The position numbers and the translations under genes are program-made. From assembly GCA_018221025.1 (NCBI GenBank), contig JAAOXX010000001.1, forward strand, positions 1 through 28,800: a stretch of 28,800 bases of DNA, given 5' to 3'. Within the stretch, counting starts at the first letter, position 1. Each line of letters starts with the position of its first letter. This stretch comes from Candidatus Altiarchaeota archaeon (lineage in GTDB: Archaea; SpSt-1190). Below are positions 4,359 to 14,519 of the stretch, piece after piece. The notes beneath the pieces are model-generated. The model did no database searches, was not told where the DNA came from, and worked only from the letters and a program-made list of their open reading frames with translations.

Positions 4359-5203
4359 AAGAGATAAAGCATACTGAGCGCAACAGGTATTGCAAAATTA
4401 TCATCAATTGGCGCCCAGACCTCTGCAATTAAGAACAAGATTGCGGGTAAAATAACTGGGCTGTAAAAATGACGGGCAATTGCCCAGGCACCAATAAAAC
4501 CTGCAAAAGTGCCCTCTACACTCTTGTTTTTGTACAAAGGAGTATATCCGAAAAATTTACCAATCAGAGTAGATAAACCATCACCAATTCCAAGAACAAG
4601 AATTATCCAGGGCTGTCCAAGATATATTGGTAATAGTGAACCTAAAAAGAAAAAGAATGCACCACGCCCAGGCCATTCAGTTTCTCTCTTTGTTTCATAT
4701 AGTACAGTCGTAATAATTGGAAGTTTAACATATTTGATGACTAAGAGGAAGAGCATACCTGTGAAATAGATGGGAAGTATAATTCTCTTATCAATGAAAA
4801 ATGGGGGAATCGCTATTAGGACGCCAAATGCTGCATGAAACACTTTTCTCTTAACTTCACCAGTTTCAAGAATAAGCTTCTTCTTTCGAATCACATGCCA
4901 TTTGCCCAAACCATAACCAAGCAAGAGTCCAGCAACCGCATTGAGTGGATTACCCATTCCAAGCATAAAGTAGACGAGAGTCAGTAACCAGAAAAATCCA
5001 TTAAAAACGGAAAGCGTCGCAAGGAACATAACATTGAGGTTGGGGGGTGCCGTGGTAAAAGTTAATGTGTCTGAGACAAGATATTTGAGAGTAACACCAA
5101 CCAGTCCAGAAAGAAACAAAGTATAAGCCACTTCAAAACGTCTTCGCCTAACATAATACAAAAATATCAAGAAGATAATTGCGTACAGCAAGACACTACC
5201 CAT
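4355..5203 (-). CDS. Dolichol/phytol kinase-like CTP-dependent membrane kinase (SEC59/DGK1/VTE5 family)
   Basis: Polytopic membrane protein with KRKVFH, GDGLSTLIGKFFG, KSVEGT and DDNFAIP family motifs. Confidence 0.85.
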   Translation of the reverse strand: MGSVLLYAIIFLIFLYYVRRRRFEVAYTLFLSGLVGVTLKYLVSDTLTFTTAPPNLNVMFLATLSVFNGFFWLLTLVYFMLGMGNPLNAVAGLLLGYGLGKWHVIRKKKLILETGEVKRKVFHAAFGVLIAIPPFFIDKRIILPIYFTGMLFLLVIKYVKLPIITTVLYETKRETEWPGRGAFFFFLGSLLPIYLGQPWIILVLGIGDGLSTLIGKFFGYTPLYKNKSVEGTFAGFIGAWAIARHFYSPVILPAILFLIAEVWAPIDDNFAIPVALSMLYLF

Positions 5204-11047: not shown

Positions 11048-14000
11048 ATGAAGAGTGGCTCAAGACTTGAAAAATTGTCAATGAGGGGTTTCAAATCATT
11101 TTCAAAGCCAACCACCCTATTATTTTCACCAGGAATAACTTCAATAGTTGGACCTAACGGTTCAGGAAAGAGCAATGTTCTCGACGCACTTAGTTTTGTA
11201 ATGGGGAGTTTGAGTTTCTCGGCCTTGAGGTCGAAGAGTGCGGAAAACCTTATCTATTTTGGAAAAACCAAGCAGTCAAATGATGCGGAAGTTGGACTTC
11301 GAATAAGGATAGATAGTGAATTTTCAGACGACGGAATTTTGAGTTTGAATCGAAAACTATCAAGAAATGGAACCAGCGTATATAGAATAAATGGAAAACG
11401 TTCAACAAGGCTTGCAACAATCGACATTCTCGCATCAATGCATATATTTCCAGACAGCCATAATATTGTTAGACAAGGAGATATAACGCGGTTTGTCAAT
11501 ATGAGTGCAAGACAACGACGGGAACTAATTGAAGTCGTTGCAGGAATTGAATTATATGAACGCAAAAAAACTAAAGCAATGACTGACCTTGACGGAGTTG
11601 AAATCAAAATTGAAAAAGTTGAGGCGGTTCACGGTGAACGGGTAAGAATTTTTACACAATTAAAGGAAGAGAAAGAAAAGGTCAACCAATTCAATAATAT
11701 GAAGGAATTGGAGGGGCGGGCAAAATATAGTATTCTATTGAATGATATTGAAAACCTAAGAAATAAATTAAATGAATTTAATAAAAACAAATCAAATAAG
11801 GAAGAAAAAATAAATGTGGTTGAGGAGTCAATGAAACAAAAAACTGATGAGTTGATGGTGGTAAGCTCAAATCTTGAAAAACGCGGTATGAGGGAAAAGG
11901 TTGGGGAAATGACGCGTCTCGAACGGTTGAAAATGGAATTTGAAAAGAAAGAAGAAGAAAAGCACAGAGAAACCACTGGTATTGAGAGTTCAAGCAAGCG
12001 CATAGAGTCAATAAAATCACAAGTTGCTGGTTTGAAAAGGCGTCAAAAGGATACTTATGAAGATATCTCAACCAAGCGAAACAGGTTGAAAGACATAAAA
12101 AAGGAAACTCAGGAATACAAGAAATTGCGGGATGAATTAACTGCTAAGGTTTCAAAAGCAAAGCAGGATTTTGAGCAGAGGAAACACAAGTATGAGCGTC
12201 TAAAAGAAAAGAAAGAAAGATGGACTCTCAAAAGTAAAGAGTTATTATTGGAAAAACAATCGAATGAACGCCTTACTCACGAATTAATACGAAAACTCAA
12301 GAATGAGGAGACTCGAAAATTGTCTCTTGAATCGGAAAAGCAAAAAATATTAGACGGAAAAAAAATACTTGAAAAAAGAATTTCATCAATCAATTTACAA
12401 CTGAAGGAGACTGAATCTAAATTGAAATTAGCAAGAGAAGGTGAAAAGGAAATCTTATACTCATCAACATTGCCTGAGGGGGTTAGAGAACTACAAAAAA
12501 AAGGTTACAAGGTGTTGGGTGAAGTGGTGGGGGACCCATCAGAAATAATGCCTTTTGCACTTAGCATTGTTGCATCCGATGCAGAAATTAAAACTATGAA
12601 AGTTGAGAAGGGGTGGGTCTATGTTGTTTCGGATAAAGTAGATATTGAAAAACTCAAAGAACTTTCAAAGATGGGGAGGGCAATTGGAAAAATAACCGGC
12701 CATGAATTCGTTAGTGCTAATCAAAGAAATGCGGAACTGGAAACTTTACAAAAAACAATTGAGTCTCTGGAAAAAAGAAGGGACTCCTTGAGGGAAGAGA
12801 GGTCTACTATTGATGGAAAATTAACACAAACATTTGATATGGAAAAAATGAAAAACACCATCGATTCAATTAAAATAATCAAAAGGGACATTTCTGAGCG
12901 GAAGACGAGATTGGTTGAAATTAATAGTGAAATGAAAGAATTGAGCGGTGAGGTTCTGAAAATGGGAGACTTGAAGGAGCCAACAATTGGAGAGGCTAGA
13001 CGACTCGAAGAAGTTACCTCAAAAATTTACTCATTGGAATCTGAATTAATGAGAACCTCTTCCGAAATAAAGGCGGAAGAAGATACACTAAAGAATTTGA
13101 TTGAGCCGGATATTTTGAATTATGAAAAATTGGGAAAAAGTATATCTGACGAGATAAAAAATAGTAAAGCTACAATCGCAGATACTGATAAGCGAAAAAT
13201 AGAAATTGGTGTTGAAATTAGGGAAGTCGAACTACGAATTGCCAAGATTGAAGGACTTTTATCTAAAGAAATAACAGTGAAATCAGAAATTGAAGAATTT
13301 CTAAAGGCATCTCAAAATACAGTTTATCAATTAAAGTCAGACATTGCCGTACTAAATGAAAAAATAAAGGGAATAACTGGGCGGATACAAAGCCTCGAAG
13401 AATCTAAACCTCAAGGAATTCAGAGAATAGAAAATCCCAGAGATGTGCTTAAACAAGTAGTAAACCAACTTGAACAATTAGGGACCTTAAATTTCAAGGC
13501 AATAGAAGAATTCAAAGAGGTTAGTGGACTTGTTGAGGATATAAGCGACCGTCTTAAAAAATTGCGAGATGAAAAAAACGCAATACTCTCTATGATGAAT
13601 GAAATTGAAAGCCAAAAATTCCAAATGTTCATGGAAACTTTTGAAAAGATAAATGCGAGTTTTTCAAAAATATTTTCTCAGGTAATTGAGGGGAGCAGTC
13701 GGCTCGAAATAGATGGTGATGACCCATTCGAATCAGGAGTCCATATTAAAACGCGAGTACAGCATAGAGACTTACCAACTGAATCTCTGTCCGGTGGACA
13801 AAAGACACTCGCGGCCCTTGCACTAATTTTTGCAATTCAGGAAGTAAAGCCATCACCCTTGTATGTGTTTGATGAAATTGATGCGGCTCTTGACAAACCG
13901 AATAGTGAAAAACTCGCAAAGATGTTTAAGAAAATGTCTGAAACAACACAAATAATTTCAATTACACATAATGACACAATGGTTAAGGAATCCGACCAAA

Positions 14001-14098
14001 TTGTTGGAGTTTACATAAATAAGGGAGCAAGTCGATTAGTCAGTCTTCCTAAAGATAAAGTTATGAAGGAAGCTGAAAGTTGGATTAGTAAAAACTAA
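11048..14098 (+). CDS. smc: Chromosome segregation ATPase SMC (short, divergent hinge)
   Basis: Walker A GPNGSGKSN, Q-loop NIVRQGDI, long coiled coils, signature LSGGQK, Walker B/D-loop YVFDEIDAALD, ITH; no CxxC zinc hook. Confidence 0.92.
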   Translation: MKSGSRLEKLSMRGFKSFSKPTTLLFSPGITSIVGPNGSGKSNVLDALSFVMGSLSFSALRSKSAENLIYFGKTKQSNDAEVGLRIRIDSEFSDDGILSLNRKLSRNGTSVYRINGKRSTRLATIDILASMHIFPDSHNIVRQGDITRFVNMSARQRRELIEVVAGIELYERKKTKAMTDLDGVEIKIEKVEAVHGERVRIFTQLKEEKEKVNQFNNMKELEGRAKYSILLNDIENLRNKLNEFNKNKSNKEEKINVVEESMKQKTDELMVVSSNLEKRGMREKVGEMTRLERLKMEFEKKEEEKHRETTGIESSSKRIESIKSQVAGLKRRQKDTYEDISTKRNRLKDIKKETQEYKKLRDELTAKVSKAKQDFEQRKHKYERLKEKKERWTLKSKELLLEKQSNERLTHELIRKLKNEETRKLSLESEKQKILDGKKILEKRISSINLQLKETESKLKLAREGEKEILYSSTLPEGVRELQKKGYKVLGEVVGDPSEIMPFALSIVASDAEIKTMKVEKGWVYVVSDKVDIEKLKELSKMGRAIGKITGHEFVSANQRNAELETLQKTIESLEKRRDSLREERSTIDGKLTQTFDMEKMKNTIDSIKIIKRDISERKTRLVEINSEMKELSGEVLKMGDLKEPTIGEARRLEEVTSKIYSLESELMRTSSEIKAEEDTLKNLIEPDILNYEKLGKSISDEIKNSKATIADTDKRKIEIGVEIREVELRIAKIEGLLSKEITVKSEIEEFLKASQNTVYQLKSDIAVLNEKIKGITGRIQSLEESKPQGIQRIENPRDVLKQVVNQLEQLGTLNFKAIEEFKEVSGLVEDISDRLKKLRDEKNAILSMMNEIESQKFQMFMETFEKINASFSKIFSQVIEGSSRLEIDGDDPFESGVHIKTRVQHRDLPTESLSGGQKTLAALALIFAIQEVKPSPLYVFDEIDAALDKPNSEKLAKMFKKMSETTQIISITHNDTMVKESDQIVGVYINKGASRLVSLPKDKVMKEAESWISKN

Positions 14099-14147: not shown

Positions 14148-14245
14148 TATGATGCCTCAGTTATCACACGAGCTTTTCAAAAACCCGTCCCGACGGGTCG
14201 GGAAGCTCGACCAAAACAAAATAAGTATGATGCCTCAGTTATCAC
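14148..14245. repeat. Perfect 20-bp direct repeat pair around a hairpin
   Basis: TATGATGCCTCAGTTATCAC at 14148-14167 and 14226-14245; the 58-bp spacer holds nested inverted repeats. Confidence 0.9.
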
Positions 14246-14302
14246 CTCCTTTTCCTCAACCCCTCACAAGGAGAGTCAGGTCAAGCCACTATCCTCACAG
14301 GC
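14232..14302 (-). ncRNA. Box C/D guide sRNA (two guides)
   Basis: GCC-T-GTGAGGA (C, 14298-14292), 12-nt guide, CTGA (D', 14279-14276), CTCTC/GAGGG stem, TTGAGGA (C', 14259-14253), 14-nt guide, CTGA (D, 14238-14235), GGC; both K-turns have the 3-nt bulge and closing stem; TATA about 24 nt upstream; T-rich tract downstream. Confidence 0.78.
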
Positions 14303-14323
14303 TTAAACCCGTAAGTCGAAACC

Positions 14324-14334
14324 TTATAACTTTC
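14324..14334 (-). promoter_or_regulatory. BRE/TATA promoter of the C/D sRNA
   Basis: GAAAGTTATAA on the minus strand; TTATAA at 14329-14324, about 24 nt before the predicted 5' end. Confidence 0.55.
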
Positions 14335-14342
14335 TCGAAAAA

Positions 14343-14519
14343 TCAGAAATCGTCGGAAAACTTATCTTCAAATTCAGTTTCCTCATTACCAAATTCATCT
14401 TGAAATTGAGTCTTCTTCTTCTTATCGGAGTCGGCCTCTTCCATGCCTTCAAGGAACCCTTTGGCCTCCCAAGATTCATCTTCATCGTACTGATCTTCGA
14501 TACCACTTTCCCCAAACAT
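14343..14519 (-). CDS. Small acidic protein
   Basis: D/E-rich ORF (YDEDESWEAKGFLEGM); SD-like GTGAGGG before ATG 14519. Confidence 0.6.
   Translation of the reverse strand: MFGESGIEDQYDEDESWEAKGFLEGMEEADSDKKKKTQFQDEFGNEETEFEDKFSDDF

Follow-up and report, generated by a model that had tools for sequence, protein, structure and literature searches.

A candidate gene for a dual-guide box C/D sRNA of the Neq sR13 type in a small-genome archaeon

The window analysed here, a stretch of 28,800 nucleotides at the start of contig JAAOXX010000001.1 of a Candidatus Altiarchaeota archaeon (GCA_018221025.1), raises the question of whether a short minus-strand element next to an SMC-family gene is an RNA gene, which sites in 16S rRNA its two guides would address, and whether such a guide is new. 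The original prediction, made from the letters alone, described a box C/D sRNA that would bridge the decoding helix and the anti-Shine-Dalgarno (anti-SD) tail of 16S rRNA. The source assembly (G000) comprises 632 kb in 75 contigs and is 86% complete.

Architecture and surroundings of the sRNA locus

The complete C/D architecture claimed for this locus, with C, D', C' and D boxes, a GCC/GGC closing stem and a TATA element, can be read directly on the minus strand from 14302 to 14232 (Table 1), and a single U separates the GCC of the stem from the C box. Both the C box and the C' box read UGAGGA, not UGAUGA, and the C box is off consensus at one tolerated position. A strict regular expression for the C/D'/C'/D order with a closing stem, run over both strands of the 632-kb assembly, matched only at 14232-14302. 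Apart from the closing stem and a small hairpin in the spacer, folding gave no structure (z = 0.27), and little further structure is expected of box C/D sRNAs. At the two ends of the element, A-T-rich TATA-like boxes stand at an equal distance from the sRNA in all relatives, and T-rich tracts follow its 3' end in most of them.

Table 1. Features of the candidate sRNA locus and related elements of the same assembly. Positions are those of the window unless a contig (C) is named.
Feature	Position	Strand	Remark
Whole box C/D sRNA, 71 nt	14232-14302	minus	covariance model R1, 75.7 bits, E 3e-18
BRE/TATA-like promoter GAGAAAG-TTATAA	14324-14336	minus	centred about 25 nt upstream of sRNA 5' end; read from the sequence
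Closing stem, 5' half GCC	14300-14302	minus	pairs with GGC 14232-14234
C box GUGAGGA	14292-14298	minus	RUGAUGA variant, G at 3b position
D' guide UAGUGGCUUGAC, 12 nt	14280-14291	minus	predicted pairing with 16S helix 44, 1406-1414; +5 = A1409
D' box CUGA	14276-14279	minus	aligned in A1
D'-C' spacer, 16 nt	14260-14275	minus	5-bp hairpin possible; holds decoy GUGAGGG
C' box UUGAGGA	14253-14259	minus	aligns with UGAUGA of relatives
D guide AAAGGAGGUGAUAA, 14 nt	14239-14252	minus	predicted pairing with 16S 3' tail, 1531-1541/1542, including anti-SD CCUCC; +5 = C1533
D box CUGA	14235-14238	minus	invariant in A1 family; variants in G010, G012 and G011
Closing stem, 3' half GGC	14232-14234	minus	pairs with GCC 14300-14302
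T-rich tract UUAUUUUGUUUU	14213-14224	minus	likely archaeal terminator; read from the sequence
Palindromic hairpin element GGTCGAGCTT ... AAGCTCG	14169-14212	minus	downstream of sRNA; genome-wide family
Second copy of last 20 nt of sRNA, GTGATAACTGAGGCATCATA	14148-14167	minus	78 nt downstream of first copy
Small ORF without family	ends 14343	minus	upstream neighbour of sRNA
SMC-family gene	11048-14098	plus	SMC_N, 162 bits; 3' end flanks sRNA
Other hairpin family members	C5:13615-13640, C17:603-628, C18:2706-2731, C22:10871-10911, C35:19165-19205, C70:4871-4894, C53:766-801
C/D sRNA candidate	C22 ~697-751	plus	canonical: TATA ~25 nt upstream, GUGAUGA, 11-nt guide, CUGA, UGAUGA, 12-nt guide, CUGA
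C/D sRNA candidate	C21 ~4545-4612	plus
C/D sRNA candidate	C35 ~1718-1741	plus

The SMC gene and the sRNA gene are convergent, and the sRNA also lies behind the SMC C-terminus in G001, a relative of the same genus, and in G005, which is the place in related genomes at which a search for homologues had been suggested. A second, sR33-like C/D pattern (14341-14405, minus strand; 12.8 bits, E 3.8), which sits within the 3' end of the upstream small acidic ORF and has guide spacers of 17-18 nt, was rejected as probably a chance match.

The palindromic hairpin element downstream of the sRNA belongs to a family with the pattern GGTCRAGCTT, a variable loop and AAGCTYG, the loops of which carry different inserts. 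Four of its seven strict copies in the genome lie within 3 nt of a tRNA gene and a fifth lies 38 nt away; one further variant is located directly 3' of another C/D sRNA on contig C22, and fragments of the family recur in relatives. The family is probably a bidirectional terminator or a processing hairpin for stable-RNA genes. The duplicated sRNA end, GTGATAACTGAGGCATCATA, has only two copies in the genome, and the repeat extends to 29 nt with two mismatches; the copies (within 14148-14245) flank the hairpin element in the manner of a target-site duplication or a slipped copy. In the same-genus G001, no such duplication was found between the SMC stop and the sRNA. Together with the other C/D candidates listed in Table 1, the C/D repertoire of this small genome seems to amount to a handful only.

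With respect to the protein partners, fibrillarin (252 bits) and an adjacent Nop5 (163 bits) are encoded on contig C30. L7Ae was not found in the 86%-complete assembly, the sole PF01248 match being L30e, the gene of which lies between rpoA'' and nusA. On the other hand, the nine other genomes of the order all encode L7Ae, and its absence here is most simply explained by an assembly gap.

Conservation across the phylum

Covariance model R1 was built from seven Undinarchaeota-type sequences, leaving aside Neq sR13, the Nanoarchaeum equitans guide with which the sRNA is compared below. A blastn search followed by R1 recovered a single copy, scoring 62-85 bits, in nine of the ten genomes of the order, and the tenth genome is 72% complete. 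Across the phylum, which is represented by a single class, the sRNA is present in 12 of 17 genomes, including two of 3.6-3.8 Mb, and R1 E-values are as low as 1e-20 in relatives. No counterpart was found in family f4 (four genomes of the same phylum) or in G006. In addition, eight more copies with the full architecture occur in metagenome contigs.

The boxes are kept in relatives: in alignment A1 (seven sequences), the GA dinucleotides of the boxes are invariant. In the C box, the U-G-A and G-A columns of A1 do not change, and the middle base is U, A or G among relatives (UGAUGA, UGAAGA or UGAGGA). The D' box is CUGA in the seven sequences of A1 but CCGA in G001, and the D box is replaced by CAGA in G010 and G012 and by CCGA in G011. 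Both guides are conserved as well, the D' guide being kept in 12 genomes. A D spacer is usually 12 nt long; it measures 14 nt in all nine sRNA-carrying genomes of the order. Over 13 sequences, all cells of the closing stem are paired (100%), with two double changes, from GC to AU and from GC to CG. The D'-C' spacer is expanded with a hairpin in the genus of the window, and in relatives it measures 2-4 nt or contains a different hairpin (G001, G010 and G012).

At the gathering threshold, Rfam reported only a tRNA in the window, and no family covers the sRNA. At a loose threshold, sR2 (RF01139) reached 17.3 bits against a gathering score of 42 and is thus a sub-threshold match; sR2 has the box C/D architecture in common with the window sRNA, but the guides are unlike.

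These observations bear directly on the explanation that there is no RNA gene at all, and that the boxes arose by chance around the SD site of an mRNA leader or within a coding fragment. It is true that GGAGGUGA, which is contained in the D guide, doubles as a ribosome-binding motif, and that mechanically called ORFs overlap the locus on the plus strand. However, the GGAGG is not followed by a start codon on the minus strand, the locus has a promoter and a terminator of its own, and the conservation is that of an sRNA, with fixed boxes and guides, spacer indels and R1 matches at the E-values given above. In the alignment of relatives, the D'-C' spacer indels are 16-17 nt long, that is, not multiples of three, which rules out coding sequence. 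Both an mRNA leader with its SD site and a coding sequence are contradicted by the alignment, the R1 matches and the paired closing stem, and the absence of an RNA gene is hardly credible.

Predicted 16S rRNA targets and function

The 16S and 23S genes were searched for in the source assembly and are absent from it; pairing was measured on the 16S rRNAs of relatives (G001, G002, G005, G010 and G011) in place of the window's own. The reverse complements given for the two guides in the original prediction are both correct. In the complete or near-complete rRNA operons of G002, G005 and G010, the 16S 3' tail is the single best site for the D guide. On the 16S rRNAs of relatives, this guide forms 11-13 contiguous Watson-Crick pairs, from 1529/1531 to 1541/1542, compared with the 10 that had been estimated, and the proposed +5 target holds: C1533 is opposite the +5 position in every homologue of the phylum. 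The predicted 16S complement of the D guide at 1531-1541 is AUCACCUCCUU. At position 1541 the pairing is accompanied by a compensatory change, the 16S of G011 reading CCUCCUA and its guide AUAGGAGG, and in the other genomes with both sequences, the 16S reads CCUCCUU and the guide xAAGGAGG.

The site of the D' guide is the 5' strand of helix 44, directly 3' of CCGCCC, and its predicted 16S complement at 1406-1414 is UCAAGCCAC. Nine contiguous pairs (U1406-C1414) are formed with the 16S rRNAs of G001 and G005 and nine pairs with that of G010, and the window guide forms 11 contiguous Watson-Crick pairs with the 16S of G002. Overall, the D' pairing comprises 9-11 pairs from 1405/1406 to 1414/1415, and the guide is conserved, so the assignment to the start of helix 44 stands. 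Guide/target covariation, which had been put forward as a check, was obtained for the D guide at 1541 in G011, and at 1414 it holds for the D' guide only in part: G011 has a G opposite a guide C and G001 a C opposite a guide G, whereas G010 has a U·U mismatch there, which is why the D' covariation is only partial.

For the D' guides of the window, G001, G005, G010 and G012, the +5 position falls on A1409. In six relatives the D' box is preceded by one extra base, and the +5 position consequently moves to A1408. Either the exact nucleotide at the D' site is not conserved, or A1408 and A1409 would both be modified, as in N. equitans. In all species that were checked, the +5 nucleotide forms a Watson-Crick pair with the guide. 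The bridging of both 16S sites by one sRNA fits the data from relatives, in which both guides are conserved phylum-wide and match the 16S, and no complement equal to or better than these was found for either guide in the genome's own 632 kb, where a better match to another RNA would have spoken against the idea.

A separate observation concerns the 16S leader of G005, which holds CUCAAGCCAAUU 24 nt upstream of the 16S 5' end (L005 position 1477). This sequence is an 8-10-nt complement of AUUGGCUUGA, the D' guide variant of several relatives. The match may be due to chance, or it may represent a second contact with the pre-rRNA.

Taken together, we regard it as likely, with a probability of about 0.8, that the locus is a free-standing sRNA gene and that its product, an archaeal box C/D sRNA with two guides on the pattern of Neq sR13, would guide 16S methylation. 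The sRNA would be assembled with L7Ae, Nop5 and fibrillarin into an sRNP. Its D' guide would then bind the decoding site on the 5' strand of helix 44 (1406-1414) and direct methylation to A1409, or to A1408 where the extra base is present, and its D guide would bind the single-stranded 3' tail (1531-1541/2), covering the anti-SD CCUCC, and direct methylation to C1533. Since the two targets, approximately 125 nt apart, flank helices 44 and 45, the bound RNP would also hold the 3' minor domain of the nascent 16S rRNA, which would amount to a chaperone or timer role as proposed for Neq sR13. Expression of the gene, RNP assembly, the methylations and any role in subunit assembly are what we infer from the sequences. 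Two look-ups for RNA sequencing runs belonging to this DNA listed none.

The balance between these two activities may be different. It is possible, if rather doubtful, that the sRNA is chiefly an assembly chaperone or timer that holds the start of helix 44 and the 3' tail through the Nob1 cleavage site, delaying the folding of pre-16S rRNA and the maturation of its 3' end, with methylation as a secondary matter. This explanation overlaps with that of a methylation guide and is compatible with it. Archaeal 16S rRNA usually ends at or before position 1541, and the pairing reaches 1541, at or past this usual end, with the compensatory change of G011 behind it; similarly, the methylation register of the D' guide shifts by 1 nt between relatives with no change in the stretch that pairs, and the same role has been proposed for Neq sR13 by Seistrup et al. 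(PMC5389701). Against a mainly structural role, the +5 nucleotide is Watson-Crick paired in all species checked, as methylation requires, and RsmA/Dim1, the checkpoint for which sR13 was proposed to stand in, is encoded in 17 of 17 genomes of the phylum.

A further-reaching version of the same idea would make the clamp a phylum-wide 30S assembly factor acting alongside RsmA/Dim1, not a Nanoarchaeum-specific substitute for RsmA. The sRNP would gate 3'-end cleavage, a step suggested by the pairing of the D guide through 1541/1542, at or beyond the Nob1 cleavage site, and it would keep immature subunits from SD-dependent initiation until its release. We consider this version unlikely.

The D guide also contains a perfect SD in GGAGGUGA, from which it could be argued that the sRNP acts as an SD mimic on the mature 30S subunit, masking the anti-SD and thereby regulating translation initiation. 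SD-like 5-mers are found upstream of 14.8% of long ORFs in this genome against a background of 2.6%, which implies that the anti-SD is in use here. However, nothing observed favours masking beyond the sequence itself. The guide stands in the canonical C'/D frame at a constant distance from box D in every homologue, which fits catalysis better than titration, and the published counterpart yields stoichiometric methylation (PMC5389701). In addition, sRNA levels below those of ribosomes, if such is the case, could not mask many ribosomes. Such a regulatory role is very improbable, and methylation guidance, with a possible contribution to assembly, is preferred.

Relation to Neq sR13 and other known guides

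Neq sR13 is an sRNA of Nanoarchaeum equitans that pairs with 16S rRNA at two places, at 1405-1415 through its D' guide and at 1531-1540 through its D guide (Seistrup et al. 2017, PMC5389701), and the 1408 prediction was given in Dennis et al. 2015 (PMC4644070). Am1408, Am1409 and Am1534 were verified by MALDI-MS and RiboMeth-seq, and the sRNA, which spans helices 44 and 45, was proposed as a chaperone or timer and as a stand-in for the RsmA/Dim1 checkpoint, which is absent in N. equitans (PMC5389701). The novelty implied by the original prediction is thus lost: the same dual-guide design was already published and verified as Neq sR13 (PMC5389701), and the window sRNA belongs to this type. In full-text literature searches, only Seistrup et al. 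was found for Neq sR13 and its sites, and no paper on Undinarchaeota sRNAs was found.

The order of the parts and both 16S targets are as in Neq sR13, and the guide cores GGCUUGAC and GGAGGUGAU are identical. R1 scores Neq sR13 at 34.7 bits (E 1e-7), and its pairing, rechecked on the N. equitans 16S, amounts to 11 and 10 contiguous pairs. The shared letters are nearly all fixed by the target or by the boxes, and for this reason common descent and convergence are indistinguishable. On the other hand, the D guide is 14 nt long in the window and 12 nt in Neq sR13. With this longer spacer, C1533 and not A1534 falls at the +5 position, and the pairing reaches 1541/1542. The D' +5 position is A1409 in the window, in contrast to A1408 in Neq sR13 and the six relatives with the extra base, so that the selected nucleotides of the window, A1409 and C1533, are each one nucleotide away from A1408 and A1534. 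Both are known as modifications, Am1409 in N. equitans and Cm1533 in I. hospitalis (PMC5389701), and the D' register drift of 1 nt within the phylum recalls the double Am1408/Am1409 of N. equitans. The 16-nt D'-C' spacer hairpin is found in the genus of the window, unlike in Neq sR13. Finally, whereas N. equitans is without RsmA/Dim1, the enzyme (PF00398) was detected above cut-off in 17 of 17 genomes of the window's phylum (in the source assembly at C1:13345-13944, 150 bits), which shows that the sRNA is not tied to the loss of RsmA/Dim1.

The search for the dual design elsewhere gave few matches. With a second model, R2, applied to 150 sampled genomes of the N. equitans phylum under strict filters of limited sensitivity, the dual design was found only in N. 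equitans itself; R2 also matched one sRNA with the helix 44 guide alone (G122) and two chance matches that look like coding sequence. When 185,579 genomes (one per species) were scanned for the exact pattern, 61 stretches were returned against a rough chance estimate of ~66, and a C/D architecture was present only in N. equitans and in four Undinarchaeota-family contigs. A match in Brockarchaeota has no boxes and was missed by the model, and it was rejected. In the sRNA of G122 (L111) and in that of N. acidilobi, which targets A1408 and G1508 (PMC5389701), the D' guide is the same helix 44 complement, of the AUUGGCUUGA type, but the second guide is not an anti-SD complement, unlike that of the window sRNA.

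The 16S rRNA of Ignicoccus hospitalis carries Gm1408/Cm1409, for which the guide is Iho sR56, and an orphan Cm1533 without a known guide (PMC5389701). Here C1533, the nucleotide selected by the window D guide, is 2'-O-methylated by experiment, and 1408/1409 are methylated too. However, the two sites are not on one sRNA, and Iho sR56 couples 1408 with U1380 (PMC5389701). The sRNA described here provides a candidate guide type for this orphan Cm1533.

The value of these findings lies in the annotation and in a lead that can be tested, and not in a new kind of system. The Neq sR13-type guide, published and verified in a single hyperthermophilic symbiont, is extended to an entire phylum of archaea that have small genomes and come from sediments and other cold habitats. 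The retention of RsmA/Dim1 in this phylum weakens the idea that the sRNA exists to replace the RsmA checkpoint, and it points to a broader requirement of small-subunit assembly, namely that the decoding site and the anti-SD tail be methylated or held. Compared with Neq sR13, what differs is the presence of RsmA/Dim1 in the same genomes, the shift of the D register by one nucleotide and the conservation of the sRNA across the phylum.
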